Source: Patescibacteria group bacterium
Lineage (GTDB): Bacteria > Patescibacteriota > Patescibacteriia > XYB2-FULL-38-15
Direction: 5' to 3'
Length of the DNA: 64,000 bases
Assembly: GCA_041650995.1 (NCBI GenBank)
Contig: JBAZJZ010000001.1
Location: 149,757-213,756 of the forward strand
Shown: positions 19,278-54,940 of the stretch, one piece after another
Numbering within the stretch: position 1 is the stretch's first letter
Layout: the number at the start of each line of letters is the position of its first letter
Translations under genes and position numbers: made by a program
Notes under the pieces: generated by a model
Seen by the model: only the letters and a program-made list of their open reading frames with translations
Databases searched by the model: none
Told to the model about the DNA's origin: nothing

Positions 19278-20330
19278 ATGACCAAAAGTTTTTTGGGTGT
19301 TGATTTGGGCGCGACGAGCATTAAAATTGTTGAATTAAAAGAAGAAGCAGGGAGGCCGAGGCTTTTAACTTACGGTTATACGGAACAAAGCGTTGGTTAT
19401 CCGGAAAAAGAATTTACAGAAACCCCCGAGCGGGCGATTGATTTAATTAAAAAAATTTCCATTAAAGCAAGAACCGTTTCCAAACAAGCAGTGGCGGCGT
19501 TGCCCTCTGCCTCGGTTTTTAGTTCGGTAATCAATATCCCAGCCGCGCCGGGCAAAGATTTGGCTGAAGCGGTGCGTTGGGAGGCGAAGAAGATCATTCC
19601 GTTGCCTTTAGAAGAGATGATTTTAGATTGGAAAGTTTTGACTCCAGAAGCTGCGGTTGGCGCCACCGTGCCGGTCATGCCGCAAAAGACGACCAGAGTT
19701 TTACTTACGGCAGCAGCAAAAAATTTAGTTAAAAAATATTTGGATATTTTTAAGGGCGCCGGTTTAAATTTAATAAGTTTGGAGACGGAAACTTTTGCCT
19801 TGGTCAGAGCTCTGGTTGGCGTTGATAAATCCACAGTGATTGTCGTGGATATGGGCGCGGCAAGCACAGCCATTTCCATTATCGAAAATGGTGTGCCTTT
19901 TTTAAACCGCTCTTTAAATGTCGGAGGAATAAATATTACCAAAGAAATCGCGGCGAGCCTTGGAACTGATTTTAATCAGGCTGAACAGATGAAATACGAT
20001 GTTGGAATGACGTCGGGCGCGGGCGGAGGAGTCTCGAAAATTGTAGAAAGAGCGTTATCAATGCTTTTGAATGAAATTAAATATTGCGCGAACATTTATC
20101 AAAATCAGGAAGGTGGAGCAGGGAAGAAAATTGAAAAAGTAATTTTAACCGGCGGCGGAGCGCTTCTTCCAAATTTTGTTGAATATCTTTCGGGCGCGCT
20201 AAATATGAGAGTTTACGCAGGCAATCCTTGGGCAAGAATAATTTATCCCGAGGAACTCCGTCCTATTTTAGATCAGATTGGACCAAAATTTTCCGTAGCA
20301 ATCGGTCTCGCGATGCGCGAATTGGAATAA
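19278..20330 (+). CDS. pilM: type IV pilus assembly ATPase-like protein PilM
   Basis: 350 aa actin-like fold, N-terminal LGVDLGATSIKIVELK. Confidence 0.8.
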   Translation: MTKSFLGVDLGATSIKIVELKEEAGRPRLLTYGYTEQSVGYPEKEFTETPERAIDLIKKISIKARTVSKQAVAALPSASVFSSVINIPAAPGKDLAEAVRWEAKKIIPLPLEEMILDWKVLTPEAAVGATVPVMPQKTTRVLLTAAAKNLVKKYLDIFKGAGLNLISLETETFALVRALVGVDKSTVIVVDMGAASTAISIIENGVPFLNRSLNVGGINITKEIAASLGTDFNQAEQMKYDVGMTSGAGGGVSKIVERALSMLLNEIKYCANIYQNQEGGAGKKIEKVILTGGGALLPNFVEYLSGALNMRVYAGNPWARIIYPEELRPILDQIGPKFSVAIGLAMRELE

Positions 20331-20506
20331 ACTAAAAATAAAAGATATATTGTTTTTTGCGTTGGTATTATTTCGAAGTTATGCCCCGCTAGAAATCGTC
20401 GGCAGAAAATTTTTATCAAAATTTTTTATTTGTGCAAAACGGGGCGGGCAGAATATTTTGTTATAGGGCAGACACTAAATAATTTTATTCAGATTTTTAA
20501 CGGGGT

Positions 20507-21550
20507 ATGCCCAACGGAAATAAAAATAGCGGGAATGATGACATAGAACTTTTGCCGGTTGAACTCCGGAGGCCGGAAGAGAAAAAGAAAAAGGAAGAAA
20601 AACAAGAAGTAAAATTATTCGTTCCCGAAACGGAAGAAAAATCCCAAAAATCAACTTTCATGGGAAAATTTTTTGGTTTGAAATCTGCTCCAAAACCCAT
20701 GGGTTCGCCAAAACCAGCCGCACCTCCACCGGAATCAGCCACAGAATCAGATCTGTCGGTTTTTAAAATGCAAAAAGAAGTTCCTAATGTCACTCCGCCG
20801 ACATCAGTTTTTTCTAGGTCAACACCCCCGCAACCGCGAGAAATTGTTCCTCCGCCAGCAAAACCGCCCGCGGAACAAAGACCCGCGCCACCGCAAAAAA
20901 TTGAACCAAAGCGCTCGCAAAATGGTGCGTCAAAAGGGAAATTATCAAAACCGTCAGGAGAAAAAATATCGCTTAGTCAGAAGCTCGGCATCACTTTGAT
21001 TCCAGAGGAAGAATCGGCGGTTAAAGAAAAAAGAAAAACGTCAAGGAAGGCGATCCTCCTGATTGTCGTGGCAATTATTTTAGTGTTAATCGGCGGGGGG
21101 TCATATTGGGCGTTAAAATGGTATCAGGGACAGGTTGATTTAGATTTACAAAAAGTTGAGGCAGATTTGAGCGTGATTAACGAAAAAAATAAAGCGTTGG
21201 ATTCAGAAAAAACTCAGGCTCAATTTTTTCAGAAAAAATTAAAAACTGCTGATAAACTTTTGGAAAATCATATTTATTGGACAAACTTTTTTTCTTTTTT
21301 AGAAAAAAATACCGTAGCGGATGTTTATTTTGTTAATTTAATCGGTGGGAGCGACGGACAGATTGTTATGTCGGGGGTGGCGAAAAGTTACAGAGCGATG
21401 GCAAGGCAGATTGTCGCCCTTAAGGCAGATGACAGGGTTTCTAAGGTTTCCGTTCTTTCCGCTTCAGCAAGCGTGGATACGGAAGGGAATGTGACGGAAA
21501 TTGATTTTGACGCGAAGCTGCAGATTAATTCGGAAATTTTTCTGAAATAA
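20507..21550 (+). CDS. pilN: PilN-like pilus assembly protein with Pro/Lys-rich N-terminal extension
   Basis: Low-complexity P/K/E N-terminus, single TM (AILLIVVAIILVLIGGGSYWAL), coiled-coil periplasmic part. Position between pilM and pilO. Confidence 0.55.
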   Translation: MPNGNKNSGNDDIELLPVELRRPEEKKKKEEKQEVKLFVPETEEKSQKSTFMGKFFGLKSAPKPMGSPKPAAPPPESATESDLSVFKMQKEVPNVTPPTSVFSRSTPPQPREIVPPPAKPPAEQRPAPPQKIEPKRSQNGASKGKLSKPSGEKISLSQKLGITLIPEEESAVKEKRKTSRKAILLIVVAIILVLIGGGSYWALKWYQGQVDLDLQKVEADLSVINEKNKALDSEKTQAQFFQKKLKTADKLLENHIYWTNFFSFLEKNTVADVYFVNLIGGSDGQIVMSGVAKSYRAMARQIVALKADDRVSKVSVLSASASVDTEGNVTEIDFDAKLQINSEIFLK

Positions 21551-21556
21551 AAAGAT

Positions 21557-22186
21557 ATGGAAAAAGTAGAAGAAAAAAAATCGAAAGAAGAGCAGAAAGA
21601 AGAGTCGAAGAAAAAAACATCTTCTTCTCTTTTGATATTTTTATTGATTGCGATTTTCGCAGTTGCGGGCTATCTTTTAATTTGGCCGGAATATAGCCGT
21701 CTGTTCGACGCTCGGGCAAAAATAGTTTTACAAAAACAAGCGTTGGAAAATGCATCTAAAGCTTTTGGGGAAATCAATAAATTGTTGGAAAACTACGCTG
21801 ATATTTCTTCGGAAGAGAAAGAAAAAATTGACGCGATGTTGCCAGATGAAGTTGATGAAGCGGGACTCTTTACTTTATTTGAAACTTTAGCACAAAAAAA
21901 TAAAATTATTGTCTTGGCGGTTGATATCAGCGAAAAAGAGTCAGCGGAAAATCTAAAAAATTTAGGGATTGTCGAAGTTCAGTCTTCCCTTAATCTTACC
22001 GCGGGTCCGGATTCGGAAGATTCATACGGTGATTTTAAAAAATTTTTAGTTGACGTAGAGGCAAGTTTAAGATTGGCAGACATCACTTCAATAAATTATA
22101 CGCCGGAAACAGCCACCTACACATTAAATCTAAAAACTTATCGCATGGCGCAGGCGCAAAGTTCCTTAGGACAACCTGCTCCGTAA
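21557..22186 (+). CDS. pilO: PilO-like pilus assembly protein
   Basis: Single TM after a charged N-terminus, then coiled coil. Synteny. Confidence 0.5.
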   Translation: MEKVEEKKSKEEQKEESKKKTSSSLLIFLLIAIFAVAGYLLIWPEYSRLFDARAKIVLQKQALENASKAFGEINKLLENYADISSEEKEKIDAMLPDEVDEAGLFTLFETLAQKNKIIVLAVDISEKESAENLKNLGIVEVQSSLNLTAGPDSEDSYGDFKKFLVDVEASLRLADITSINYTPETATYTLNLKTYRMAQAQSSLGQPAP

Positions 22187-22190
22187 ATTT

Positions 22191-22433
22191 ATGAAAAAAA
22201 GAGCACTGATTTTAATAGTTGTATTATTGCTTATCGCGGCAGGCGGATATTTTTTATATTATAAATTGATGAGCGAAGAAGTAGGCGGTACGCTTGGCAT
22301 TACAAAAACTATTGATACGAATTTTGACACAAAAATTTTTTCTAACAGTAAGTTTGACGGATTAAAAACATATGTAGTTTTGCCGGTTGAAGTCGGTCAG
22401 AAGGGAAAAATCAATCCCTTTATGAAGTTTTAA
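22191..22433 (+). CDS. small membrane-anchored pilus-locus protein (PilP-like?)
   Basis: 80 aa with N-terminal TM. TAATATG overlap with pilB. Confidence 0.35.
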   Translation: MKKRALILIVVLLLIAAGGYFLYYKLMSEEVGGTLGITKTIDTNFDTKIFSNSKFDGLKTYVVLPVEVGQKGKINPFMKF

Positions 22434-22434
22434 T

Positions 22435-24171
22435 ATGGATAATAGTCCCTTACTTAGTATTTTGCTCCAGGAAAAATTGATTGACGGAGAAAAAGCAGGT
22501 GTATTGATGGAGGAAAGTCAAAAAACAGGAAAAAGTATTGAAGCCCTTATTGACGAATCGGGCCAGATTGAAGAAGAAAAACTGGCCGAAGTAAAGGGCA
22601 AAGTTTTTAATTTGCCGTATGTTAATTTAGTCGGCCGTGAAATAAAATATGAAGATTTAAATATCATTCCAAAAGACGTGGCGGAAAATAATCATGTCGT
22701 TTCTTTTGAAAAACTTGATGGTGCGGTTAACGTTGGCATTATCAATCCGGGGAATATCGCAGCCATGGAGGCGATTGATTTTTTAGCTAAGGAGAAGAAA
22801 TTTTCCGTTAAATATTTTATAATTTCTCCGGCCAGTTTCAGGGATGCCGCGAAAAAATATGAGATTTTGAAAAAAGAAGTGGAAAAAGTTTTGGAAATCG
22901 CCGAGGAGAGATTTAAAGAAGAAGAAAAGGAAATTGAAGAGATTCCGGTGGGTGAGGTGGCAGAAGCGATTAAAAAAGCTCCAGTTTCCAAAATGGTTGC
23001 GATGATCATGAAATACTCCGTTGATAATAAAGCTTCGGATATTCACATTGAACCCGCGTTTAAAGAATCCCGAGTTCGTTATCGCATAGACGGCGTCCTC
23101 CGTCCGAGACTCGCCCTTCCAGCCTATATTCACGCAGCTGTAGTCGCAAGAATTAAGGTTTTAGCCAATTTAAAATTAGACGAGACGAGAATCCCTCAGG
23201 ATGGAAGAATTAGACAGGTTATCAACGGAAGAAACGTTGATTTTCGTATTTCCACGTTGCCTTTGATGGACCAAGAAAAAGTTGTGATGAGGGTTTTGGA
23301 GACCGCAACAAAAGCCGCAACACTTGAAGATCTTGGATTTCGCGGGCGGGCGGTGGAAATTATCAGTCGGGAAATAAAAAGACCGCATGGACTTTTGCTT
23401 GTTACCGGTCCGACTGGCTCTGGTAAATCCACAACTCTTTACACGGCGCTTTCTATGGTAAATCGTGAAGGAATCAACCTTGTAACTTTAGAAGACCCGA
23501 TAGAATATTATATTGGCGGAGTAAACCAGTCGCAAATTCGGCCGGAAATTGGATTTACTTTTGCCGCCGGACTTCGTTCTCTCTTGCGGCAGGATCCGAA
23601 TATTATTATGGTCGGCGAAATTCGCGACAATGAGACAGCGGAACTTGCTATTCACGCGGCGCTTACTGGCCACTTAATTTTTTCCACCCTGCACACAAAT
23701 GACGCCGCCGGAGCGATCCCGCGTTTGATTGATATGAAAGTAGAGCCGTTTTTATTATCATCAACCTTAAATGTAGTCGTCGCCCAGCGATTAGTTAGAA
23801 AAATTTGTTCTTTTTGTAAAGAAGAAGTTGCCATGCCCGTCGATGTTACAGAAAATATCAGAAACGAGCTGGTTTCCATGCCCAAGAAATTTTTGCCGTC
23901 AGGAGTTGATCTGGATTCTCCTTTCAAACTTTGGCACGGGGCAGGCTGCGCGCGTTGTAATAATGAAGGGTATATTGGTCGAGTCGTTATTTCTGAAGTT
24001 TTGGAGGTTACGGATAATTTAAAAAGAATTATCGCCGAGGGATTTAATATTAAAAATTTTAATGAGGAAAGAAAAAATCAGGGCATGGTCAGCATGAAAC
24101 AAGATGGGTTTTTAAAAGTACTTGAAGGATTAACAACCGTAGAAGAAGTTTTGCGTGCGACACAAGAATAA
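22435..24171 (+). CDS. pilB: type IV pilus assembly ATPase PilB (GspE family)
   Basis: Walker A GPTGSGKSTTL, Walker B IIMVGEIRD, His box, tetracysteine CSFCK...CARC. Confidence 0.9.
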   Translation: MDNSPLLSILLQEKLIDGEKAGVLMEESQKTGKSIEALIDESGQIEEEKLAEVKGKVFNLPYVNLVGREIKYEDLNIIPKDVAENNHVVSFEKLDGAVNVGIINPGNIAAMEAIDFLAKEKKFSVKYFIISPASFRDAAKKYEILKKEVEKVLEIAEERFKEEEKEIEEIPVGEVAEAIKKAPVSKMVAMIMKYSVDNKASDIHIEPAFKESRVRYRIDGVLRPRLALPAYIHAAVVARIKVLANLKLDETRIPQDGRIRQVINGRNVDFRISTLPLMDQEKVVMRVLETATKAATLEDLGFRGRAVEIISREIKRPHGLLLVTGPTGSGKSTTLYTALSMVNREGINLVTLEDPIEYYIGGVNQSQIRPEIGFTFAAGLRSLLRQDPNIIMVGEIRDNETAELAIHAALTGHLIFSTLHTNDAAGAIPRLIDMKVEPFLLSSTLNVVVAQRLVRKICSFCKEEVAMPVDVTENIRNELVSMPKKFLPSGVDLDSPFKLWHGAGCARCNNEGYIGRVVISEVLEVTDNLKRIIAEGFNIKNFNEERKNQGMVSMKQDGFLKVLEGLTTVEEVLRATQE

Positions 24172-24195
24172 AATAGAATTTAGGAAAATCTGCTT

Positions 24196-25281
24196 ATGGC
24201 GATGGATACAAATCTAGATAAATATATTGCGAAAATACCTTTTTTAAACCGAGTCCCGGCTAAAGACTTGGTTATTTTTGCTCGTCAGCTTTCGGTTATG
24301 ATTTCCGCCGACGTGCCAGTTGTTCAGGCTTTGAAAATTTTGATCCGGCAAACAGCTAACAAAAATTTACGAACTGTTGTGGCCAATCTCGCCGCTGATG
24401 TTGAGGGCGGCGCGAAACTTTCCATCGCCCTGGGACGGTACCCTCATATTTTTGACGATTTTTTTGTTAATATTATCCGTTCAGGTGAAACGACGGGAAA
24501 GCTAGACGAGGTTTTGGATTATTTGGCAACTCAACGGGAAAAAGATTATGATCTGCAAAGCAAAATAAAGGGCGCCATGATTTATCCAGCGTTTATTTTG
24601 TTTGGTTTGGTAGCGGTCGGCATTGTGATGATGATTTTCGTTATTCCTAAACTGACGGATATTTTAAAGGAAACGGGAGGGGTCCTACCTCTTTCTACGA
24701 GAATTTTAATTACAACTTCTGATGTGATGACAAATTATTGGTGGGCTCTGGCGGTCGTTGTTGTGGGTATTGTTTTAGGCGTGAGATATCTAATCAGTTT
24801 TCCTCTTGGCAGAAAATATTGGGATACGATGAAATTAAAGTTACCAATTTTCGGCCAATTATTTAAAAGAATTTACATAGTCCGTTTTACTCGCGGACTT
24901 TCAACGCTTCTTACTGGCGGAGTGGAAATTGTAGGAAGTTTGAAAATCGCCGGAGAGATTACTGGAAACGCGGTTTATAAAGAATTGATAACGGAAACCA
25001 TGAAAGAGGTGGAGGACGGCAATCCAATTACGACGGTTTTTGCCAAAAGCAAAGATATCCCAATAATGGTTACTCAAATGCTGGGCATTGGAGAGCAAAC
25101 CGGGAAAATTAGTGTTATTTTGGAAAGAATTACCGATTTTTATACGCGAGAGACGGAAAATATGGTTAGGAATTTAACCACGATTATGGAGCCGCTTATT
25201 ATGCTTTTGATGGGGGTGGGCGTTGGCATTATGGTCGCGGCGGTAATTTTACCAATGTACAGTCTGGCGACGCAGTTTTAG
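24196..25281 (+). CDS. pilC: type IV pilus platform protein PilC (GspF family)
   Basis: 361 aa with GspF repeats and 3 TM segments. Confidence 0.8.
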   Translation: MAMDTNLDKYIAKIPFLNRVPAKDLVIFARQLSVMISADVPVVQALKILIRQTANKNLRTVVANLAADVEGGAKLSIALGRYPHIFDDFFVNIIRSGETTGKLDEVLDYLATQREKDYDLQSKIKGAMIYPAFILFGLVAVGIVMMIFVIPKLTDILKETGGVLPLSTRILITTSDVMTNYWWALAVVVVGIVLGVRYLISFPLGRKYWDTMKLKLPIFGQLFKRIYIVRFTRGLSTLLTGGVEIVGSLKIAGEITGNAVYKELITETMKEVEDGNPITTVFAKSKDIPIMVTQMLGIGEQTGKISVILERITDFYTRETENMVRNLTTIMEPLIMLLMGVGVGIMVAAVILPMYSLATQF

Positions 25282-25335
25282 TTGTGGAACTTAAAATTTG
25301 AAACTCGCAACTCGTTGACAGTTTATCAAGCCCAA

Positions 25336-25363
25336 AGTTCCATGTTTCAAGTTCCATGTTTCA
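25336..25363 (+). promoter_or_regulatory. perfect tandem 14-bp direct repeat AGTTCCATGTTTCA x2 over the -35 region of the pilin promoter
   Basis: Repeats 25336..25349 and 25350..25363. Extended -10 TGtTATAAT at 25372..25380. Pilin ATG at 25454. Confidence 0.55.
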
Positions 25364-25453
25364 TGATTTTGTGTTATAATTTAATAATAATTTAATCCTA
25401 AAAAATCACAACTTAGAAGCTTAAAGTTGTGATGGACGAAAGGAGGTGGAAGA

Positions 25454-25894
25454 ATGTTTAAAAATAAAAAAGGTTTTACCTTGATTGAATTGCTCGTAGT
25501 TATTGCCATTATCGGCTTGCTTTCAACCTTGGCGGTCGTCGCTTTGACTTCAGCTAGAACTAAAGCCAGAGATTCAAAGAGAGTTGCGGACATGAAACAG
25601 GTCCAAACAGCTATGGAATTGTATTACAGCGCTAACAACGCTTATCCTCTTTGTGCTGCCGGAACATTGGTTTCTGCTTGCGGAGTTTTGGCGCCTGATT
25701 ATTTGCCCGGCGTTGCTAATTTGAAGGATCCGGGTGGAATTGCAGCGGCTTGCGCCGATCCAGCAGCAGCGAAGTGCAATTATTCTTTTGGCGCACCAGT
25801 AGCGGGCGAGTTTGAGGTCAATTTTTGGTTAGAGGGAGCGACAGGAGATTTAGCTGCAGGTGCTCATACGGTAACACCGGCTGGTCTCAAGTAA
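25454..25894 (+). CDS. pilA: major type IV pilin (prepilin)
   Basis: MFKNKKG|FTLIELLVVIAIIGLLS class III signal with Glu+5. 146 aa with C-terminal Cys pair. Confidence 0.85.
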   Translation: MFKNKKGFTLIELLVVIAIIGLLSTLAVVALTSARTKARDSKRVADMKQVQTAMELYYSANNAYPLCAAGTLVSACGVLAPDYLPGVANLKDPGGIAAACADPAAAKCNYSFGAPVAGEFEVNFWLEGATGDLAAGAHTVTPAGLK

Positions 25895-25925
25895 ATTTAG
25901 TCTCAAAATTTTGAGAGATCAAAAA

Positions 25926-25947
25926 ACTCCCGCGCGGGAGTTTTTTG
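25926..25947 (+). terminator. strong rho-independent terminator after pilin (actcccgcgcgggagt + TTTTTTGTTT)
   Basis: Perfect GC palindrome with a U-run. Also a 16-bp perfect palindrome tctcaaaattttgaga just upstream. Confidence 0.8.
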
Positions 25948-25979
25948 TTTGGTTTTTGCTTATTTTTGTGGTATAATTT

Positions 25980-26762
25980 TTGAATATGGTGATTACAATA
26001 GTTTTTATTTTTGGCTTAATTTTGGGAAGTTTTCTAAATGTCGTAATTTGGCGGATGCATGCCGGAGAGTCGGTTTTAACCGGCCATTCCCATTGCCCAA
26101 AATGCCGCCATATTTTAGGTCCTTTTGAATTAATTCCGGTTTTAAGTTTTCTAATTCAGAAGGGGAGGTGTCGGCATTGCGGAAAATCAATTTCCTGGCA
26201 ATATCCGCTCGTGGAACTTTCTACCGCGATTTTATTTTTGCTCGTTTATTTGCCGTACGATTTACGGTTTACAACCTATAATTTTTTTCTCTTAGCAAGA
26301 ACATGGTTTATCATTGCTACTCTGATAGTAGTTTTTGTTTATGATTTAAAATATTATTTAATTTTGGATAAAATAATTTATCCCGCAGCGGCGGTTGTTA
26401 TTATAACTTTGCCGTTAATTTATGGAGGAGAAATTTCTTGGTGGGGATTAGTTGGTCCGATTATCGCAGCAATTCTGGGCGGCGGATTTTTTCTTTTGCA
26501 GTATTTAATTTCAAAAGGTAAATGGATTGGCGGGGGAGATATAAAAATGGGAGCGTTGATGGGTTTGATTTTGGGAATTGGCGGGCTCGGCGTAGCTTTG
26601 TTTTTTGCGTATGTCGTCGGCGCGGTTATAGGGTTGATTTTAGTGGCCGGGAAAATTAAAACAATGAAAAGCCAAGTGCCATTTGGGACGTTTCTCGCCG
26701 CCGGAACTGTTTTCGCGATGTTTTTGGCTCGGCCAATTTTAAATTGGTATTTAAATTTTTAA
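25980..26762 (+). CDS. pilD: prepilin peptidase PilD (A24 family)
   Basis: CPKCRH...CRHCG zinc tetracysteine, 8 TM, two catalytic Asp regions. Confidence 0.85.
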   Translation: MNMVITIVFIFGLILGSFLNVVIWRMHAGESVLTGHSHCPKCRHILGPFELIPVLSFLIQKGRCRHCGKSISWQYPLVELSTAILFLLVYLPYDLRFTTYNFFLLARTWFIIATLIVVFVYDLKYYLILDKIIYPAAAVVIITLPLIYGGEISWWGLVGPIIAAILGGGFFLLQYLISKGKWIGGGDIKMGALMGLILGIGGLGVALFFAYVVGAVIGLILVAGKIKTMKSQVPFGTFLAAGTVFAMFLARPILNWYLNF

Positions 26763-33380: not shown

Positions 33381-33974
33381 ATGAAAAAAATTAATGTTAA
33401 AAAAGGGAAGAAATCAACGAGTCAGACCGCGCTCACAAGATCAGTAAAAAATAAATTGACGGCAAGCCATACGCCGCGCGTTGCACCGAGCTGGTGGGAA
33501 CACGAAGTTAAAGGAAAAAAGCCGCTTCGCGTTTGTTCCCGTTGCGGCGCGGTTTATTTTGATGAGCATTGGCACACTATTCCGAATTTTCTGAAACTAT
33601 ATAAAAAAATGTTGTCTCCAAAACCGGTTGCGAAAGAATTATGCGCCGAGTGCAAATGGATTATGGGCGGAAAAAATAAAACCGGATGGGAAGGGGAGTT
33701 AGTTTTGGAAAATTTAGTGCCTGAAGAAAAAAGTGAAATTGTAAATTTAGTGCGAAATGTCGGTAAGCGCGCCTTTCTCCGCGATCCCGAAGATCAGATT
33801 ATAAAAATTGAAGACATGGGCCGCAAGGTGCGCGTCACAACCACGGAAAATCAACTGGCTGTTTCTATCGGTAAACAAGTCGCGAGCGCTTTTAAGGGTG
33901 GCCGCTTGGAAATAATCTGGTCGGATGAAGACGCGCCAGCGAGAGTTCGGTGGATAAGGAAAAATAAGAAATAA
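33381..33974 (+). CDS. hypothetical Zn-ribbon protein (basic N-terminus, CSRCG...C..C)
   Basis: 197 aa with CxxC...CxxC-like arrangement (CSRCGAV...CAEC). No family recognised. Confidence 0.4.
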   Translation: MKKINVKKGKKSTSQTALTRSVKNKLTASHTPRVAPSWWEHEVKGKKPLRVCSRCGAVYFDEHWHTIPNFLKLYKKMLSPKPVAKELCAECKWIMGGKNKTGWEGELVLENLVPEEKSEIVNLVRNVGKRAFLRDPEDQIIKIEDMGRKVRVTTTENQLAVSIGKQVASAFKGGRLEIIWSDEDAPARVRWIRKNKK

Positions 33975-33977
33975 GAT

Positions 33978-34433
33978 ATGACCGTTGAAGTCGATCTCTA
34001 CTCTTTAGTTAAATTTATCGGCGGGACGCTGGCCGCGATCGCTTTTATTTTTTTAATATACCGCGCGTACAAAGCTATTGCGGTATTTTTTAAAAGTAGG
34101 GAATATGATCTAGATAAGAGCGGCATAAAAAAACGTTGGCAGGAGATAGAAAAAATGCTCGATGGTCCCGGTGAAATGAATTATAAAATAGCCGTGATGG
34201 AAGCGGACAAAATGCTTGATTATGTTTTAAAATCAATGTCAATGGCTGGAAAAGATATGGGAGAGAGGATCCGATTCGCGAGTTTTAAATACAGCCGGCT
34301 AAGAAAAGTTTGGTGGGCGCATGTTTTACGAAATCAGCTTGTGCACGAAGCGACTTTTGTTTTGGATTATGGCATGGCCAAGAGAGCAATAAAAACATTT
34401 AGGCGCGCGCTCGAAGAATTGGGCGCGTTATAA
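33978..34433 (+). CDS. hypothetical membrane-anchored protein
   Basis: 151 aa with N-terminal TM (FIGGTLAAIAFIFLIY). Confidence 0.4.
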   Translation: MTVEVDLYSLVKFIGGTLAAIAFIFLIYRAYKAIAVFFKSREYDLDKSGIKKRWQEIEKMLDGPGEMNYKIAVMEADKMLDYVLKSMSMAGKDMGERIRFASFKYSRLRKVWWAHVLRNQLVHEATFVLDYGMAKRAIKTFRRALEELGAL

Positions 34434-34460
34434 ATAAATTAGTAATTAAGAGTAAATTTT

Positions 34461-35291
34461 ATGCAGTCAAAAAATTTAAATTTTTTTCTTGCTAATTTAT
34501 TTTTTGCCGCGATTATAATTCTATATATTTTTATTTTGTGGAAAGGTCAGGATATTGGCGGATTTTTTCTGACGGCGTTTTTTACTTTATCGGTTTTTAT
34601 TTTTACGCTTTGGCACGCCTTCAGGAAATTCGGCGCGAGAAACGCGATTCTCTTTCTTTTTTTAGTTTTATTTGTAAGTTTGGGAGCTGAGTTTATCGGC
34701 GCCAATTTGGCTAATAACTTTGAGGGGTATTACAAATATTCAGAATTTTTAGGATGGAAGTTTTTAAATATTCCGTTGCTTATAATTTTGATGTGGACGG
34801 CAATTATTTATCTTTCCTATCAGGTTTCGGAACACATTACCAATTTTCGATTTACGAAACAAACTCCGTTTTTACAAAAGTTTTGGGTTAGTTTCTGGTG
34901 CGCGCTTTTGACATCGCTTGTAGTTGTGGCTTGGGACTTTGCCCTTGAGCCGCTCGCGGTAGAGATGGGATGGTGGTCGTGGCTTCATCCCGGAGAATAT
35001 TTCGGCGTGCCGATTAATAATTTTTTCGGCTGGATGACGATTTCTTTCTCCACAGTTTTTCTTTATAAAATTTTCTTTGAGAGAGAAAGGCCGGAAGAGG
35101 CGACCTTGTTTGATTACGCTCCAATTATCGGATATGCCATGATTTGTTTTTTCACCATTCTTACGGCTATAAATATCAATAAGCCCATCTTTGCCCTGAT
35201 TGCTTTTACGGGAATGTTTCCCTTTGCCTGTATTATGGTTGTTAAATTCTTGGTTGGCCGGCTTAATTTTCCCGAACAATACAGGAAATAA
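34461..35291 (+). CDS. polytopic membrane protein (unknown family)
   Basis: 276 aa with ~7 TM helices. Trp/Phe-rich loops. Confidence 0.45.
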   Translation: MQSKNLNFFLANLFFAAIIILYIFILWKGQDIGGFFLTAFFTLSVFIFTLWHAFRKFGARNAILFLFLVLFVSLGAEFIGANLANNFEGYYKYSEFLGWKFLNIPLLIILMWTAIIYLSYQVSEHITNFRFTKQTPFLQKFWVSFWCALLTSLVVVAWDFALEPLAVEMGWWSWLHPGEYFGVPINNFFGWMTISFSTVFLYKIFFERERPEEATLFDYAPIIGYAMICFFTILTAININKPIFALIAFTGMFPFACIMVVKFLVGRLNFPEQYRK

Positions 35292-35400
35292 TCGTATAAA
35301 ACATCTTACCGCCGGCGAACATAGCTGGCGGTTTTCATTTGCTGTTAACCTTGACGCCCTTTTGTGGTATAATAAATGTAGATAGCAATACGCGAAGCAA

Positions 35401-35478
35401 GATTAATTAATTACTCAATTACTATCAATTACTTAATTACAACGAGGTAATTGGTAATTAGGTAATTAAGTAATTATT
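35401..35478. repeat. AATTAC x4 / GTAATT x4 convergent hexamer array (quasi-palindrome) in the 5' leader of the 35510 gene
   Basis: AATTAC at 35409, 35417, 35427, 35435. GTAATT at 35447, 35454, 35462, 35470. Putative promoter 35345..35373 upstream. Confidence 0.6.
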
Positions 35479-35509
35479 GTTTTGGTTTTGTGTTATTTAA
35501 ATTCAAGCG

Positions 35510-36916
35510 ATGATCACTATTGATTTGAGTTATTTTGATACTTTAGCGACAATGTCGCCGCTTGCGATTATGTGGCGGCTTTTCGCCGACGGAGGGTGGG
35601 CAATAATCCTCTGGGTTTTTCTTTGGGGATCTTGGGAAATTTGGGTTAATTGGCGGCAAAATCTTTATGAGGCCAAACGCCGTTGGATATTTTTGGCGGT
35701 GGATATTCCCAAGGCCGTCTTGGATGAGCCTGGCCAATCGCCGCGTGCCGTAGAAAATATATTTGCTCATTTGGACGGTGCTCACGGCTCTGACACTCTT
35801 TGGGAAAAGTATTGGGAAGGCAAAACTCAGGATTGGTTTAGTTTGGAAATAGTGAGCATCGAAGGGTACATCCAATTTGTCATTCGCACTCGCGATAAAT
35901 TTCGTGACCTAGTGGAAGCGGCGATTTACGCGCAATATCCCGACGCGGAAATTACGGAAGTTATTGATTACACCAAATGGGCGCCAAAGAAATTTCCCGA
36001 TCCTGAGTGGGATTTATTTGGTACAGAGTGGATTAAAGTTAGAAAAGAAGATGCCTACCCGCTTCGGACATATCATGATTTCGAAGATCCGGCGACTAAA
36101 GAATTTAAAGATCCTCTGGCAGCCGTGCTTGAAACGATGTCTAAAATGGGAAAAGGTGAACATATCTGGTTCCAAATAATTGTGACGCCGATCAGTCAGA
36201 AAGAATGGACTACGAAAGGTGTAAATTTAGTTAAAAAGTTAATCGGCGCGAAAGTGGAAGCTAAACAAACTTGGGCGGATAAAGCTTTTGATTTGCCGCT
36301 TAAGGTGGCCGATACCGCGCTTAGTCAAATTTTAAGCAGCGCGGAAGAGGCACCTAAGAAAAAAGAAGAAAAAAAAGAAGCATCGCAAATGCAATATCTT
36401 TCTCCCGGAACAAAAACTTTAGTGGAAGCCATTGAGAAAAAAATTTCCAAGATTGGTTTGCAAACAAAGGTAAGGATGATTTATCTCGCTCGAAAAGAAG
36501 TTTTTAAAAAGTCCCGCGCTGCGCATCCAATGGTTGGGGCTATTAAACAATTTAATACGCTGGATGGTCAAAGCATAAAGCCTGAGTATAAAAAAGTTGG
36601 CACAGCCGCCCATTATATTTTGGTAAAGAAAAGAGTGGCTTGGAAAAAAGAAAAAATCATGAGGGCTTACAAGGGACGCAGCCCCTCGCGCGGGATTGGT
36701 AAGGGTTTTGTTTTAAATATTGAAGAATTGGCTACAATGTGGCATTTTCCGGCGTTTTGGATTAAAGCACCGCCAGTTAAGACCGTGGAGAGTAAGCGAG
36801 GCGTTCCGCCCATTAATTTGCCTTTTGAAGAGCCGTCTTACATGAAAGCAATCGCGGAAACAGCGGGTGAGGAAGAATTGGAAAAAGAAATTCCGCCAAA
36901 CCTGCCCACGGCGTAG
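35510..36916 (+). CDS. membrane-anchored hypothetical protein partnered with the VirD4/HerA-like ATPase
   Basis: 468 aa. Two N-terminal TM helices (AIMWRLFADGGWAIILWVFLWGSWEIW), large soluble domain, K/E-rich linker. Confidence 0.45.
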   Translation: MITIDLSYFDTLATMSPLAIMWRLFADGGWAIILWVFLWGSWEIWVNWRQNLYEAKRRWIFLAVDIPKAVLDEPGQSPRAVENIFAHLDGAHGSDTLWEKYWEGKTQDWFSLEIVSIEGYIQFVIRTRDKFRDLVEAAIYAQYPDAEITEVIDYTKWAPKKFPDPEWDLFGTEWIKVRKEDAYPLRTYHDFEDPATKEFKDPLAAVLETMSKMGKGEHIWFQIIVTPISQKEWTTKGVNLVKKLIGAKVEAKQTWADKAFDLPLKVADTALSQILSSAEEAPKKKEEKKEASQMQYLSPGTKTLVEAIEKKISKIGLQTKVRMIYLARKEVFKKSRAAHPMVGAIKQFNTLDGQSIKPEYKKVGTAAHYILVKKRVAWKKEKIMRAYKGRSPSRGIGKGFVLNIEELATMWHFPAFWIKAPPVKTVESKRGVPPINLPFEEPSYMKAIAETAGEEELEKEIPPNLPTA

Positions 36917-36954
36917 AGATCTAATGTGGAAAATATTAAGTATAAATACTCACA

Positions 36955-39075
36955 ATGGAGGAAGTCGCATTGTTCGCTGAAACAAATTTTCGGGGGGAGC
37001 GGAAACGTTTCGGCATAAAAACCGACGATCGCCGTCGGCACATGTATATCATCGGTAAAACCGGCATGGGAAAAACTACCACGCTGGAGAATTTGATTAT
37101 CTCCGATATCAGAGCGGGTCGCGGTGTGGGCGTGGTTGATCCACATGGCGACTTAGCGGAAAAAATTCTTGATTTCATCCCGGCGGATAGAATTAACGAC
37201 GTGGTTTATTTTAATCCGGCTGACTTGGATTGGCCGATTGCTTTTAATATTTTGGAATCAATTGATCCAAGATATAAACACCTTGTCGCTTCCGGTATGA
37301 TGGGAGTTTTCAAAAAAATCTGGCCGGATGTTTGGTCGGCCCGAATGGAATATATTTTGAATAATACAATTTTAGCGCTCTTGGATTGTCCGGGGTCCAC
37401 GATGCTTGGCATCAACCGGATGTTGGCCGACAAGGATTATCGGAAAAAAGTTATTCTTAAATTGAAAGATCCGGTGGTTAAAGCTTTTTGGGTTGATGAA
37501 TTTGCAAAATATAATGAAAGATTTGCCACTGAAGCGATCGCACCAATTCAGAATAAAGTTGGTCAGTTTTTATCGGCTTCAATCGTTAGAAATATTGTTG
37601 GCCAGGTGAAATCTACGATTGATATGCGCGAGATAATGGACAGCCAAAAGATTTTTATAATGAATTTAGCAAAAGGCCGGATAGGTGAAGACGCGAGCGC
37701 TCTTTTGGGAAATATGCTTGTTACAAGAATTCAGTTGGCAGCCATGGGGCGCGTTGATATTCCGGAACCTCAGAGAAAAGATTTTTATCTCTATGTCGAC
37801 GAATTTCAAAATTTTGCCACGCTGAGTTTTGCCAATATTTTATCCGAGGCCAGAAAATATCGTTTGAATTTGATTTTAGCTCATCAATATATTGAACAGT
37901 TGGCCGAAGAAGTTGCCGCCGCTGTTTTTGGCAATGTCGGAACAATTGTTGCTTTTCGAATTGGCGCGGCTGATGCCGAGGTTTTGGAAAAGGAATTTTC
38001 ACCAACCTTCACGTCTGAAGATTTGGTAAATCTGACTAAGTACGACACGTACATGAAATTGATGATCAATGGAGTATCATCAACGCCTTTTTCCGCTTCG
38101 GGTTTGCCGCCAGTTATGGGCCCGACTGATAATCGAGATAAAGTCATCCGCGTTTCCCGGGAACGTTATGCCAAGCCGAAGGAAATCGTTGAAGAAAAAA
38201 TTATTCGCTGGAGCGGAATGCAGGTTATTGGCACTGAAGAAAAATCAGATGAAGAACTTGAAGCGGAGATTAAAAAGTCAATTGAAGAAAAAAAGAAAGA
38301 GGCAGAAGGTCTAAAAAGCGGAGTAGCGGAGGCGGGAGAAAAGAAAAAACCGGAAATGTCTCAAGTCGAACTTGAAGAACGTGCCATTACCGCTCGTGAA
38401 GCATTTTTGGAAAAATCAAAAGTTCAAGCGGTTGATTTCTTAAAAATTTTTGCTTCAGAACCAGAAGAAAGGGAAAAGATTATTGAAGAACAAGAAATAA
38501 AAAAGGAAGTGGCTGCTCCAACCGTGATTGTACGCCCGCCGAAAGTTGTGATTAAACCGACAGAACAAATTAATATAGATATACAAATAAAGGAACCGCA
38601 GCGGCATGAAAAGCCGGCAAGGGAAGAAAAAAGGGTGCCGGTTCAAAAACAAGAAAAAGCTGTCCCTCAAAAATCAGCGACAGAGGAAGATCTTCCGTCG
38701 CCCCTGAAGCTGGATGAGCCGGAGGAGAAAAAAATTGCATCTGTTTCGGAAAATCTCCCTACAGTTTCTTTGGATAAAAAATCAACTCCGGCTGTGATGC
38801 CCGCGCCTCCAGCTGTTTTGCCGATTAAAAAAGAAGAAAAGAAAAAAGAAGAGGATAGGGATAAAAAGACATTTGAAGAAAAATTTCCTTACGAAATAAT
38901 TTGCTCGGCTTGCGGAAAACCGGATAGAGTTTCTTTTAACCCCGATCCGAATCGGCCAGTTTATTGTAAGGCCTGTCTCAAAATTGAAAAAGAAAAGGAA
39001 AGGCAGGCGAAGAAAAATAAAAATAGACAGAAACAAGTGCCACGAGCCGCAGGAACGGAGCCGAAGAGTTCATAA
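36955..39075 (+). CDS. VirD4/TraG-like (DUF87/HerA-FtsK superfamily) P-loop ATPase with K/E-rich linker and C-terminal CxxC...CxxC zinc ribbon
   Basis: Walker A IIGKTGMGKTT, Walker B FYLYVDEFQNF, 'TraD/TraG' type DNA-binding core. Terminal CSACGKPDRVSFNPDPNRPVYCKAC. Confidence 0.65.
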   Translation: MEEVALFAETNFRGERKRFGIKTDDRRRHMYIIGKTGMGKTTTLENLIISDIRAGRGVGVVDPHGDLAEKILDFIPADRINDVVYFNPADLDWPIAFNILESIDPRYKHLVASGMMGVFKKIWPDVWSARMEYILNNTILALLDCPGSTMLGINRMLADKDYRKKVILKLKDPVVKAFWVDEFAKYNERFATEAIAPIQNKVGQFLSASIVRNIVGQVKSTIDMREIMDSQKIFIMNLAKGRIGEDASALLGNMLVTRIQLAAMGRVDIPEPQRKDFYLYVDEFQNFATLSFANILSEARKYRLNLILAHQYIEQLAEEVAAAVFGNVGTIVAFRIGAADAEVLEKEFSPTFTSEDLVNLTKYDTYMKLMINGVSSTPFSASGLPPVMGPTDNRDKVIRVSRERYAKPKEIVEEKIIRWSGMQVIGTEEKSDEELEAEIKKSIEEKKKEAEGLKSGVAEAGEKKKPEMSQVELEERAITAREAFLEKSKVQAVDFLKIFASEPEEREKIIEEQEIKKEVAAPTVIVRPPKVVIKPTEQINIDIQIKEPQRHEKPAREEKRVPVQKQEKAVPQKSATEEDLPSPLKLDEPEEKKIASVSENLPTVSLDKKSTPAVMPAPPAVLPIKKEEKKKEEDRDKKTFEEKFPYEIICSACGKPDRVSFNPDPNRPVYCKACLKIEKEKERQAKKNKNRQKQVPRAAGTEPKSS

Positions 39076-39096
39076 TTTACAAAACATAAAAGAAAA

Positions 39097-39121
39097 ACAA
39101 GCTCTTGAAAAGCTTGTTTTT
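39097..39121 (+). terminator. rho-independent terminator (acaagct-cttgaaa-agcttgt + TTTTT)
   Basis: Perfect 7-bp stem with a U-run after the ATPase gene. Confidence 0.75.
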
Positions 39122-53624: not shown

Positions 53625-54908
53625 ATGGAAATAAAACAAATCAAAATCAAGGAACTCCTCCCGTCGGAATACAACCCCCGGATAATGCCGGACGACGAGA
53701 TGAAAAAACTGATTAGATCGATTCAGGAATTTGGTTTTGTGGAGCCGGTAGTGGTAAACCAGCATCCGGGGAGGGAGAACATCATCATCGGCGGCCACCA
53801 GAGAGTTCTGGCTGCCAAAACGCTCGGCTACGAAGAGGTGCCGGTTGTTTTTGTCAGCCTTACGCCGGAGAAAGAAAAGTTGCTGAATCTCGCGCTGAAC
53901 AGAATTTCCGGATCGTGGGAAGAAGAAAAGCTGGCCGCGCTTTTGTCCGAACTGGAAGAAGCAGACGTTGATTTATTTTTATCCGGTTTTAATTCGGCCG
54001 AGATAGACGAGCTGCTGAAAAATTTTCATGAGACAAAGGAAGAAGATTTTAATGCCGTAGAGGAATTGGAAAAAATTACCACACCGGAATCTAAGCCCGG
54101 GGAAATTTATGAGTTGGGCCGGCATAGATTGCTTTGCGGTGATAGTACGGAAATTCTGAATCTGAAAAAATTGATAGGAGAGAATATAATAGATTTGGTT
54201 TTTACTGATCCGCCGTTCAACGTCGGTTATAAATCAAGCGGCAAAAATCGGGACAAGTGGTCTGAAGCGTATGGAGATGATGATTACACGGACGAGGGCT
54301 TTGATGAATTTTGTATAAAAGTATTTGGAAATTTTAAGAAATTTTTAAAGGGTGGTGGTGCTTATTATGTTTGCTCGGGCTGGAGTTCCTGGGCATCTTT
54401 TTGGCAGGCGTTGAAGAAAAACAATTTGAAGCCAAAGGGATGTATTATCTGGGACAAGGGGCATGGCGGGATGGGATGGTCTGATTACTGGTACCAGCAT
54501 GAATTAATCGCAGCCGGGCTGAAATTTGAGGCCACCGGCGACACAGAAAGTGAAGTCTATGAGATGGTGGTTTACGGCTTTGACGAAAAGGCAAAACATT
54601 ATTTTGCCAAGAGGGGCGGCGCGCGGCTTACCGATGTTTGGCGTATTCCGCGAGATCCGAATAACAAGTATGAACATCCAACGCAAAAGCCGCTGAAATT
54701 AATTGAGAACGCGATTTATAACAGCTCGAGGATTGGTGACAAAGTTTTGGATATGTTTGGTGGTTCCGGATCAACTTTAATCGCGTGCGAGCGGACCGGG
54801 CGAACAGCTTTTTTAATTGAGCGTTCGCCTTTGTTTTGTGATGTTATTAGAAAAAGATATGAAAAATTCACCGGAGGAAGAGCAGTTAAAATTACCCCTA
54901 CCGGATGA
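53625..54908 (+). CDS. ParB-like nuclease domain fused to N6-adenine/N4-cytosine DNA methyltransferase
   Basis: ParB N-terminus (LLPSEYNPR...GGHQRVLAA). MTase motif IV DPPFN (TDPPFNVGY) and motif I-like MFGGSGST. Confidence 0.75.
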   Translation: MEIKQIKIKELLPSEYNPRIMPDDEMKKLIRSIQEFGFVEPVVVNQHPGRENIIIGGHQRVLAAKTLGYEEVPVVFVSLTPEKEKLLNLALNRISGSWEEEKLAALLSELEEADVDLFLSGFNSAEIDELLKNFHETKEEDFNAVEELEKITTPESKPGEIYELGRHRLLCGDSTEILNLKKLIGENIIDLVFTDPPFNVGYKSSGKNRDKWSEAYGDDDYTDEGFDEFCIKVFGNFKKFLKGGGAYYVCSGWSSWASFWQALKKNNLKPKGCIIWDKGHGGMGWSDYWYQHELIAAGLKFEATGDTESEVYEMVVYGFDEKAKHYFAKRGGARLTDVWRIPRDPNNKYEHPTQKPLKLIENAIYNSSRIGDKVLDMFGGSGSTLIACERTGRTAFLIERSPLFCDVIRKRYEKFTGGRAVKITPTG

Positions 54909-54940
54909 GGATAGTTGGGTCTTTGATTTAATAGAAAAAT

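Follow-up and report, generated by a model that had tools for sequence, protein, structure and literature searches.

A conserved gene pair of Patescibacteria encoding a membrane-anchored DUF8128-like protein and a VirB4/VirD4-class ATPase: a candidate coupling-type translocase split over two genes

Background

In TrwB-type coupling proteins the N-terminal part is a short transmembrane domain only, and it is in the same polypeptide as the motor. In Patescibacteria, which are ultra-small bacteria, Quinonero-Coronel et al. 2025 (PMC12102498), whose focus is the neighbourhoods of virB4, found that 2,918 of 3,035 genomes (96%) have T4CP homologues and 2,417 (80%) have VirB4, and that only 148 of 5,713 T4CP homologues lie near virB4. 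Relaxases are rare in the phylum, 109 having been counted in 103 genomes, and canonical conjugative DNA processing is therefore absent. In S. epibionticum the type IV secretion system (T4SS) is essential for epibiotic growth and the t4cp homologue is not, and the T4SS cluster of this organism has no recognisable coupling protein (PMC10633639).

Here we describe a gene pair found in a window, that is, the whole stretch of 64,000 nucleotides analysed, from a Patescibacteria group bacterium. The ATPase encoded by the second gene almost certainly belongs to the family of the published orphan T4CP homologues. Neither the DUF8128 partner encoded by the first gene, nor the split architecture, nor the VirB4-like fold is mentioned in the consulted sections of PMC12102498, and no mention of the partner was found in the other published work consulted.

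The gene pair and its flanking signals

The unit and its flanks contain the following features.

35308..35332, + strand: terminator-like hairpin with a T-run, closing the upstream CruF-like gene and isolating the unit
35345..35373, + strand: promoter-like site, TTAACC and TATAAT with a 17-nt spacer and TG upstream (10 of 12 matches)
35379..35499, + strand: AT-rich leader hairpin of AATTAC/GTAATT repeats (-36 kcal/mol, z = -5.2)
35510..36916, + strand: partner gene, probable DUF8128 family, 468 aa, membrane anchor and cytoplasmic VirB4-N-terminal-domain-like domain
36955..39075, + strand: ATPase gene, 706 aa, VirB4/VirD4-class motor, charged linker and zinc ribbon
39093..39121, no strand assigned: palindrome forming a terminator-like hairpin at the end of the unit, with a 13-bp stem between runs of A and T

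The two genes lie on the same strand with 38 nt between them, and an ORF check returned both exactly as the initial annotation describes them. That annotation had proposed a two-gene unit, and this is supported. The unit has its own promoter-like site and terminator-like hairpins on both flanks. The sequence of the upstream hairpin is conserved in one of the two closest relatives (L005), the promoter-like TTAAC..TGnTATAAT is conserved in both (L005 and L006), and the downstream hairpin overlaps the promoter-like site of queH. The repeat-laden leader that had been assigned to the unit does exist, and its AATTAC/GTAATT repeats occur nowhere else within the window, but it was not found in L005 or L006. 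Since it is missing from these closest relatives while the promoter-like site is conserved there, the leader hairpin is probably a local, lineage-specific insertion that lies outside the conserved unit, and for the same reason a regulatory role for it across the family was rejected. An Rfam scan of the unit and of the entire window gave zero matches, and a tRNA search found none.

The partner protein

The features of the partner are listed below.

35558..35653, + strand: hydrophobic stretch containing a conserved GGW, aa 17-48, and then RQNLYEAKRRW (sequence and AlphaFold model)
35684..36772, + strand: folded domain of alpha+beta type, aa 59-421, similar to EccE and to the N-terminal domain of VirB4
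36716..36751, + strand: conserved NIEELATMWHFP motif, with counterparts in fused plasmid and haloarchaeal homologues
36806..36823, + strand: PPxNLP motif, first of two, where the disordered tail begins, equivalent to the inter-domain linker of fused proteins
36893..36907, + strand: PPNLP motif, second of two, at the very end of the protein (from the alignment)

In place of the two N-terminal transmembrane helices proposed earlier, a single one is more likely. The sole hydrophobic stretch of the partner is about 32 aa long (aa 17-48) with KRR after it, and the AlphaFold model has one long helix at aa 17-56, from which the partner is predicted to be probably a single-pass membrane protein with a cytoplasmic C-terminus. 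The large soluble domain claimed at the same time is indeed there, as the folded domain at aa 59-421. When this protein was compared with known structures by Foldseek, the best 12 matches were all TrwK chains. The matches listed include no structure of TrwB, of HerA or of the VirB4 C-domain alone, so that it is the VirB4 N-domain that the partner resembles. The likeness is structural only; the partner profile had no similarity to PDB sequences, to the VirB4 of Shouchella (E 0.6) or to TrsD (hhalign E 0.35), a search of PDB sequences with the partner sequence returned nothing relevant, and both AlphaFold models were built on alignments of limited diversity.

The partner is a member of a large family, with more than 2,282 homologues and at least 3,215 clusters at 50% identity. 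No family was matched when the partner was scanned locally with Pfam and NCBIfam. A precomputed PF26449 (DUF8128) match is present on 119 of 120 of the homologues listed and is marked weak on a 48%-identical homologue, and the local Pfam scan returned PF26449 neither for the window partner nor for homologues that carry the precomputed match. The counterparts of NIEELATMWHFP are PELAALAHLP in fused plasmid homologues and DELAGVAHIP in a haloarchaeal homologue. In the tail, at least one [NGSED]LP triplet is found in 67 of 78 partner orthologues and at least two in 38 of 78, and the full PPxNLP form is visible in the alignment. The second PPNLP motif could be a docking peptide for the ATPase.

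The ATPase

The motifs of the ATPase are as follows.

37054..37080, + strand: Walker A GKTGMGKTT, aa 34-42; G34, K35, T36, G37, G39 and K40 invariant in 40 orthologues
37789..37815, + strand: Walker B LYVDEFQNF, aa 279-287; V281 to F287 invariant and L279 and Y280 at least 90% in 40 orthologues
38215..38889, + strand: K/E/P-rich low-complexity linker, about aa 421-645, of varying length among orthologues
38890..38982, + strand: CxxC-x17-CxxC zinc ribbon (zf_Tbcl_2 / TIGR04272), aa 646-676

Both Walker motifs, the K/E-rich linker and the C-terminal CSACGK...YCKAC (aa 650-674) are as first described. The C-terminal 286 aa contain 42% charged residues, the zinc ribbon scored 41 bits with Pfam zf_Tbcl_2 (cutoff 27) and 37.3 with TIGR04272 (cutoff 36), and the CxxC-x(15-20)-CxxC pattern was found in 49 of 66 ATPase orthologues. 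Domains of the zf_Tbcl_2 type bind zinc in small proteins of M. mazei (PMC12704099). An all-alpha domain is inserted within the nucleotide-binding domain, and there is no hydrophobic segment outside the core fold of the ATPase, the anchor being on the separate partner protein.

In the homology search with the ATPase all 8,000 scored candidates were significant, and like the many homologues of the partner this shows that the pair is not a product of chance. The ATPase is of the VirB4 C-domain/VirD4 class, with TrwB_AAD_bind at 46.3 bits (cutoff 20.5) and TraG-D_C at 29.5 bits (cutoff 22), together with partial sub-threshold NCBIfam matches to two models, TraD and the VirD4-like CD1115 family. 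When the ATPase profile was aligned by hhalign with F TraD, F TraC, Shouchella VirB4, and TrsK and TrsE of pGO1, the E values were 4e-5 to 3e-2, and these weak and partial matches place the motor no nearer to VirB4 than to VirD4. Two outcomes had been set beforehand as speaking against the proposal, namely firm clustering of the ATPase with FtsK or SpoIIIE and a partner of well-known function, and neither was seen. The ATPase does not cluster with FtsK, the FtsK_SpoIIIE motor domain was not above threshold, and the partner is without a well-known function. It is very unlikely that the pair is a housekeeping pump for chromosome segregation or septal DNA, analogous to FtsK/SpoIIIE, even though it is membrane-tethered, belongs to the ASCE superfamily too, shows very high conservation and has housekeeping genes around it.

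Fused homologues

When proteins that match both genes were examined, it was found that the pair together corresponds to a single-chain protein made of an anchor, a VirB4-N-domain-like domain and a motor. In PHROG 5156 (824 positions) the partner matches profile positions 74-289 and the ATPase 407-821, and gp156 of phage G (825 aa) matches both the partner (E 3e-6) and the ATPase (E 2e-43). The N-terminus of an 883-aa protein of a Shouchella plasmid aligned to the partner profile with an hhalign probability of 96.5% (E 8.9e-10), and an 812-aa protein of Embleya is colinear, with a hydrophobic segment, RRRR, the N-domain, PELAALAHLP, PPxxxP and GATGSGKST in this order. Haloarchaeal plasmids carry the split form, in which a 391-aa protein upstream of the ATPase matched the partner profile with a probability of 80% (E 1.4e-5). 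A protein search with the N-terminal region of phage G gp156 gave zero matches. Rather than an effector, the partner is the N-terminal half of the ancestral protein, with its anchor and VirB4-N-domain-like fold, now detached from the motor.

The fused form is present in Bacillus phages, and on plasmids of Bacillota and Actinomycetota it adjoins VirB4 and Replic_Relax. The gene order on the Embleya plasmid is PrgI, VirB4-like, fused protein, Replic_Relax and NlpC/P60; on the Shouchella plasmid the fused protein is found with Replic_Relax, conjugal transfer genes and VirB4; and in phage G the fused gene adjoins a VirB4-like gene. A conjugation-like ancestry in DNA translocation, in line with the earlier suggestion, fits these contexts.

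Conservation, genomic context and alternative functions

The ATPase gene is directly downstream of the partner gene in 66-67 of 80 sampled Patescibacteria loci, with a median gap of 7 nt, and in 12 of the 80 loci, with full flanks, the partner has no ATPase within 6 kb. With the two closest relatives excluded, identity is 62-74% in the motor domain and 39-52% in the partner. The recurrent neighbours in the 80 loci are SecDF, a sigma70-r4/HARE-HTH protein, MnmA and AlaRS. The window has no relaxase and no mating-pair-formation genes, no T4SS or relaxase is among the frequent neighbour families of the 80 loci, and linkage to VirB3, VirB6 or VirB8 is absent from both. A remnant of an integrated conjugative element was rejected in view of the conserved housekeeping synteny and of a motor that is 62-74% identical across lineages.

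Could the pair supply the coupling protein that the Patescibacteria T4SS lacks? It would act in trans, with its VirB4-like N-domain docked on VirB4 or on the inner-membrane complex, and deliver proteins or DNA to the host. Consistent with this, the fused homologues adjoin VirB4 in T4SS clusters, as does the phage G gene a VirB4-like one, and Patescibacteria T4SS clusters are without a coupling protein while T4CP homologues are found elsewhere in the genome. We regard this as a tentative explanation that is probably not correct, because the frequent neighbours in the 80 loci include no T4SS family, T4CP homologues are commoner than VirB4 in the published survey, and the motor is far more conserved than would be expected of a secretion accessory. 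In addition, that S. epibionticum can dispense with its t4cp homologue but not with its T4SS argues against obligate coupling to the T4SS, on the assumption that this homologue is orthologous to the pair.

Another explanation is that the tethered translocase pulls single-stranded DNA through ComEC, which is the role of ComFA in Bacillota. Coupling proteins of the VirD4 class act on DNA, and the charged arm and zinc ribbon could bind nucleic acid. In the literature the conserved com set of CPR bacteria comprises ComEC, DprA and ComFC with no mention of ComFA, and these three are dispensable in S. epibionticum like the t4cp homologue. This is rather unlikely, however, since com and pilus genes are not recurrent neighbours in the 80 loci, nucleic-acid binding by the zinc ribbon is putative, and translocation could run in either direction. 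The pilus genes of the window (PilM 19278, PilB 22435, PilC 24196, prepilin peptidase 25980) are not near the unit, as had been claimed, but about 9-16 kb upstream, with LigA, GatC, GatA and others in between, and a pilus or competence link drawn from proximity is weak.

A defence module against phages or plasmids, with a HerA/mad8/DptH-like ATPase and an effector partner, had also been put forward. Its sole signal is a generic match of the ATPase to mad8. The partner is a VirB4-N-domain-like anchor in which neither a nuclease nor Sir2 nor any further effector fold is present, no further mad or dnd genes or other defence partner gene are adjacent, and a scan of IMG/VR with the partner profile found no relatives. 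The pair is core, near-universal, highly and vertically conserved and in housekeeping synteny, which is the opposite of patchy defence islands, and a defence function is highly improbable.

Proposed mechanism

Our best guess, with a probability of roughly 0.65, is that the two genes encode one membrane-tethered machine split in two, a domesticated coupling-type translocase. Gene 1 provides the N-terminal anchor and a cytoplasmic domain of VirB4 N-terminal fold, and gene 2 a P-loop motor of the VirB4 C-domain/VirD4 class with its helical insertion, a flexible charged arm and a terminal zinc ribbon. A probable origin is the plasmid fused protein, which lies beside VirB4 and Replic_Relax, a putative relaxase, just where a conjugative coupling protein would be encoded; Patescibacteria would have inherited a split copy without the relaxase, which then came under strong purifying selection among housekeeping genes. 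The partner would tether the ATPase at the inner membrane face, with docking probably through the conserved EELAxLWHFP / PPxNLP region, which in fused homologues links the two domains. Like VirB4, VirD4 and HerA, the ATPase is most likely a ring, and ATP hydrolysis would then pass a polymer substrate, recruited by the zinc-ribbon arm, to a membrane channel. Nucleic acid is our best guess for the substrate. For the channel, the Patescibacteria T4SS in trans is a possibility to which we give somewhat less than even odds, and the ComEC DNA-uptake route is doubtful.

Implications

With a dedicated membrane partner, its VirB4 N-domain fold and the recognition of the pair as a split form of a monoderm coupling protein, an orphan annotation is turned into testable hypotheses. 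These are T4SS docking, participation in DNA uptake and recruitment of substrate through the zinc-ribbon arm, all of which can be addressed in the genetically tractable Saccharibacteria. A large DUF family also gains a fold and a context. More speculatively, and on balance unlikely, DUF8128 and the ATPase could be a third lineage of the VirB4/VirD4 superfamily that had not been recognised before, with a VirB4-type N-domain and a VirD4-type coupling role, serving as coupling protein in monoderm conjugative elements. Patescibacteria would then have domesticated a split copy at the root of their phylum, where it became a core translocase independent of relaxases. This lineage may be an evolutionary intermediate between VirB4 and VirD4. 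If so, the core translocase could serve DNA/RNA exchange or cargo delivery to the host and would be a central, hitherto overlooked part of the epibiotic lifestyle.

Comparison with known systems

With the orphan T4CP homologues of Quinonero-Coronel et al. 2025 (PMC12102498) the ATPase shares near-universal occurrence and a location far from virB4. With VirD4/TrwB/TraD/TraG (TrwB_AAD_bind, TraG-D_C, T4SS-DNA_transf) it shares the P-loop domain, intact Walker motifs and the all-alpha insertion. VirD4 and TrwB, however, carry the anchor in the same polypeptide, whereas here a VirB4-N-domain-like domain of about 360 aa is on a separate gene; a charged arm with a zinc ribbon takes the C-terminal place of the TraM- or IcmSW-binding tail of coupling proteins; and there is no relaxase or T4SS nearby, a linkage that only the fused plasmid homologues have.

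The architecture of an N-terminal domain followed by a C-terminal ATPase is common to the pair and to VirB4/TrwK/TraC, but the VirB4 models are unmatched by the pair (TIGR00929 17.6 bits, cutoff 643; no CagE_TrbE_VirB and no AAA_10), the pair is not linked to VirB3, VirB6 or VirB8 as VirB4 is, and genomes with the fused form also encode a separate bona fide VirB4. TrsD and TrsE of pGO1 are a naturally split VirB4, and the partner has no similarity to TrsD. EccE of the mycobacterial type VII (ESX) system is a weak structural match to the partner without sequence similarity, and no ESX components other than the EccE-like partner are present. The analysis as a whole hints that VirB4, VirD4 and EccE are structurally linked. 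The ATPase also resembles those of HerA-NurA, Sir2-HerA, DUF4297-HerA, MADS mad8 and DptH, but HerA-type systems pair the ATPase with an effector, whereas here there is neither an effector fold nor any cognate system gene adjacent.

The fused DUF8128-ATPase proteins (PHROG 5156; phage G gp156 and TP-84 gp48; Shouchella and Embleya) are colinear over both genes and have the same motifs as the pair, ELAxLxHxP, PPxxxP and Walker A and B. They differ in being single polypeptides on mobile elements and not two chromosomal genes, in lacking the zinc-ribbon arm, and in a sequence identity to the pair of only 22-33%. The pair is the split form of a coupling protein from monoderm conjugative elements.

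Layout of the unit and its setting

The window lies in a Patescibacteria (CPR) chromosome with a GC content of about 41%; nearly all of its genes are on the + strand and most are housekeeping genes (LigA, GatCA, MnmA, AlaRS, LepA, MurJ). It also contains a type IV pilus locus and, near its end, a prophage-like segment. The two-gene unit described in the initial annotation was found with both ORFs on the + strand and 38 nt between them, in the following arrangement.

35308-35332, terminator-like hairpin that ends the upstream CruF-like gene
35345-35373, promoter-like site TTAACC-17-TGnTATAAT
35399-35481, insertion of AT-rich inverted repeats (AATTAC/GTAATT units) within the leader
35510-36916, + strand, partner ORF, 468 aa
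36955-39075, + strand, ATPase ORF, 706 aa
39093-39121, palindromic hairpin, flanked by A and T runs, that ends the unit just before queH

As read from the sequence, the two genes form a conserved unit that is transcribed separately. The repeat-laden leader and the terminator attributed to it are both present, but the strong AT-rich hairpin that the AATTAC/GTAATT repeats form in the leader (-36 kcal/mol, z = -5.2) is probably not part of the unit, because it is missing in L005 and L006, the two closest relatives, in which the promoter-like site is kept. Since, in addition, the hairpin had no match in Rfam and its repeats were found nowhere else in the window, we treat it as a local insertion, for which slippage and a small palindromic element are the candidate origins.

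The genes upstream of the unit (33381-35291) code for a protein with a sub-threshold match to the BCAM0308 family, a membrane protein of 151 aa and another membrane protein that resembles CruF/Caroten_synth. A family related to carotenoids would not be expected in the genome of a Patescibacteria member. A GC-rich island at 13600-15000 (0.52 compared to about 0.41 in the remaining window) holds a K/R/E- and Cys-rich ORF of 361 aa (13825-14910, + strand), with long overlapping ORFs in another frame and on the opposite strand; this ORF had no match in Pfam and the island has only two short tandem repeats. Several ORFs of the prophage-like segment (53625-61100) are without a family match, and two fusions were recognised in it.

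53625-54908, ParB_N fused to an N6/N4 DNA methylase
57158-59323, portal protein fused to a Mu-F-like protein

The ATPase is a VirB4/VirD4-class motor

The ATPase has a Walker A motif at aa 34-42 (GKTGMGKTT) and a Walker B motif at aa 279-287 (LYVDEFQNF), and the core residues of both are invariant across 40 orthologues. The class assigned initially holds, as Pfam families TrwB_AAD_bind (aa 24-365), TraG-D_C and, marginally, DUF87 all matched above threshold. FtsK_SpoIIIE and HerA_C of Pfam remained below threshold, and the NCBIfam matches, which included TraD and the CD1115 VirD4-like family, were partial and sub-threshold. The fold comparison gave the following ranking.

Fold ranking of the ATPase (score)
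VirB4 C-terminal domain, T. pseudethanolicus, 28.6 (327 of 374 residues aligned)
DptH/DndH C-domain, 28.3
TrwB, 25.3
DotL, 23.5
HerA, 22.3
Cag-beta, 21.8
FtsK, TcpA and EccC, about 17

The pair is unlikely to work as an FtsK-like DNA pump, given this order of folds and the fact that papers on Saccharibacteria TM7x discuss ftsK. No membrane segment was found in the ATPase itself. The charged low-complexity linker and the terminal zinc ribbon were both confirmed: the linker begins after aa 420 and is about 225 aa long, 42% of the C-terminal 286 residues are charged, and the ribbon (CxxC-x17-CxxC, aa 646-676) is above the Pfam and TIGRFAM thresholds and its motif occurs in 49 of 66 orthologues. 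Small M. mazei proteins carrying the same ribbon domain bind zinc (PMC12704099).

The partner is a probable DUF8128 protein with a predicted VirB4-like fold

The local family libraries (Pfam, NCBIfam) gave no match for the partner, and a precomputed match to Pfam PF26449 (DUF8128) was found on nearly all of its listed homologues. The family is very large: more than 2,282 of the scored candidates matched significantly, and an exhaustive profile search gave 3,215 clusters at 50% identity. All the named homologues among the matches listed are annotated as Patescibacteria or an unclassified "bacterium". The copy in the window is a typical member of this already annotated DUF family, and we found no literature on DUF8128 or PF26449.

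In the AlphaFold model, which is of good quality (pLDDT 81.8, pTM 0.76), a single long helix (aa 17-56) spans the sole hydrophobic stretch (aa 17-48), which is followed by KRR, and then come an alpha+beta domain (aa 59-421) and a disordered tail. The membrane anchor and the large soluble domain proposed for this protein agree with the model but the two N-terminal TM helices do not, and we read it as a protein that probably crosses the membrane once and lies mostly in the cytoplasm. When the model was searched independently with Foldseek the top twelve matches were TrwK chains (probability 0.96-1.0), with EccE3 next. The partner has no P-loop, and the structure of the VirB4 C-domain only, TrwB and HerA were absent from its structure-match list; from this it follows that the similarity must be to the N-terminal domain of VirB4. 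Sequence profiles of the partner reached no match with VirB4, TrsD or PDB entries, and on the model the likeness to VirB4 is structural only. At the level of predicted structure, folds can now be given to both halves of the pair.

Conservation of the pair and its neighbours in Patescibacteria

We examined the context of 80 loci from different species. In 66-67 loci the ATPase gene directly follows that of the partner, with a median gap of 7 nt; in twelve loci with full flanks it was not found within 6 kb. Sequence comparison indicates that the intact ATPase is under strong purifying selection. Excluding the two closest relatives, identity was 62-74% for the motor domain and 39-52% for the partner. 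The recurrent same-strand neighbours were SecD/SecF (53 loci), MnmA (25-28), SecA (18) and AlaRS (12-13), and in 36 of the 80 loci (within L007-L084) a sigma70-region-4 protein with HARE-HTH is encoded on the same strand directly upstream of the pair, at a median distance of 88 nt. This protein is absent from the window, in whose lineage the Sec and HARE-HTH neighbours were lost and MnmA and AlaRS are still downstream.

The sigma70-region-4/HARE-HTH gene is itself preceded by SecD/SecF, with a PPIase-containing form of SecD in the two examples checked. A partner without ATPase within 6 kb downstream was seen in L047, L051, L052, L058, L059, L062, L069, L076, L077 and L083, and on short contigs in L024, L056 and L068; in such loci the DUF8128 gene is mostly 3' of SecDF.

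T4SS, relaxase, com and defence families were not among the frequent neighbour families of the 80 loci. That the pair is a defence module, as had been considered, is unlikely because it has no effector and its distribution is that of a core gene pair. The link to the pilus and competence by proximity was not upheld either, as no com family was among these frequent neighbours and the pilus locus is about 9-16 kb upstream, with LigA, GatC, GatA and others in between.

19278-26762, type IV pilus locus (PilM 19278, PilB-type ATPase 22435, PilC 24196, prepilin peptidase 25980)

A probable working of the pair is that the partner anchors the motor on the cytoplasmic side of the membrane, where the motor would assemble as a ring like its relatives, that the charged arm and zinc ribbon would recruit a substrate, and that ATP hydrolysis would drive it into a channel. 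One candidate for this channel is the T4SS of Patescibacteria with the pair acting in trans, for which the VirB4-like N-domain of the partner is a plausible means of docking. According to PMC12102498, VirD4-type T4CP homologues were identified in 2,918 genomes out of the 3,035 of Patescibacteria, virB4 is nearby for only 148 of 5,713, and few relaxases occur; in S. epibionticum the T4CP homologue is dispensable whereas the T4SS is essential. This dispensability, and a distribution wider than that of VirB4, argue against obligate coupling to the T4SS, and the T4SS cluster of S. epibionticum is described in PMC10633639 as lacking a recognisable coupling protein. The other candidate is ComEC, since the literature names ComEC, DprA and ComFC as the conserved com genes of CPR, a set with no ComFA-type motor.

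Split and fused homologues on plasmids and in phages

Sequence comparison with single-chain homologues indicates that the pair is one protein divided over two genes. In PHROG 5156, a phage profile of 824 positions whose function is not annotated, the partner aligned at 74-289 and the ATPase at 407-821, and Bacillus phage G gp156 (825 aa) matched both the partner (E 3e-6) and the ATPase (E 2e-43); this fused DUF8128-like and ATPase gene follows and adjoins the VirB4-like gp155 (L003, the phage G locus, 1154-5296), which makes a pair of secretion-type ATPases that is puzzling in a phage. ATPase homologues were also seen as the 754-aa gp48 of phage TP-84 (L004, 3747-6011) and in SPO1-like phages, CP-51 and D6E.

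The break point in the window is in the inter-domain linker directly after the first PPxNLP motif, and the partner tail terminates with a second PPNLP motif, which may be a docking peptide; 38 of 78 orthologues have a second [NGSED]LP triplet in their tail. In the literature on T4CP and T4SS of Patescibacteria, as far as its available text goes, we found no description of the partner or of this split architecture, and the recognition of the partner fold and of the split and fused relationship is apparently new. Overall, the initial observation on the pair was confirmed with small corrections and its interpretation was right in part.

When plasmids were searched by tblastn with the ATPase as query, 293 records matched, mainly from Streptomyces, Bacillus, Staphylococcus, Clostridium, Sulfolobus and haloarchaea. 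An ATPase-only homologue of 395 aa, which shares 42% identity with the motor of the window, was seen on a plasmid of the alphaproteobacterium Sulfitobacter mediterraneus (L085, 6941-8128) beside transposase and recombinase genes, with no DUF8128 gene, and may reflect horizontal transfer. On the haloarchaeal plasmid of Halomontanus rarus (L088, 911-9697) two genes share the module, as they do in the window. The first codes for a protein of 391 aa that matched the profile of the partner with a probability of 80% (E 1.4e-5), and it extends over the start of the second, which codes for an ATPase of 1,026 aa. Another putative pair of similar arrangement is just upstream on this plasmid.

With hhalign, the N-terminal region of an 883-aa protein from a Shouchella clausii plasmid matched the profile of the partner at a probability of 96.5% (E 8.9e-10). 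This protein is followed by Replic_Relax, genes for conjugal transfer and, where VirB4 would be, an ATP-binding protein of 837 aa. An Embleya plasmid encodes, in this order, PrgI (VirB3-like), a VirB4-like protein, a fused protein of 812 aa, Replic_Relax and NlpC/P60, and the 812-aa protein is colinear with the window pair through a hydrophobic segment, RRRR, the N-domain, PELAALAHLP, PPxxxP, a beta-hairpin and GATGSGKST. With fused homologues beside VirB4 and Replic_Relax on plasmids, the conjugation-like ancestry proposed for the unit holds, and these sequence relationships indicate that the window pair is homologous to fused proteins whose genes stand in the place of the coupling protein in conjugative modules of monoderms.
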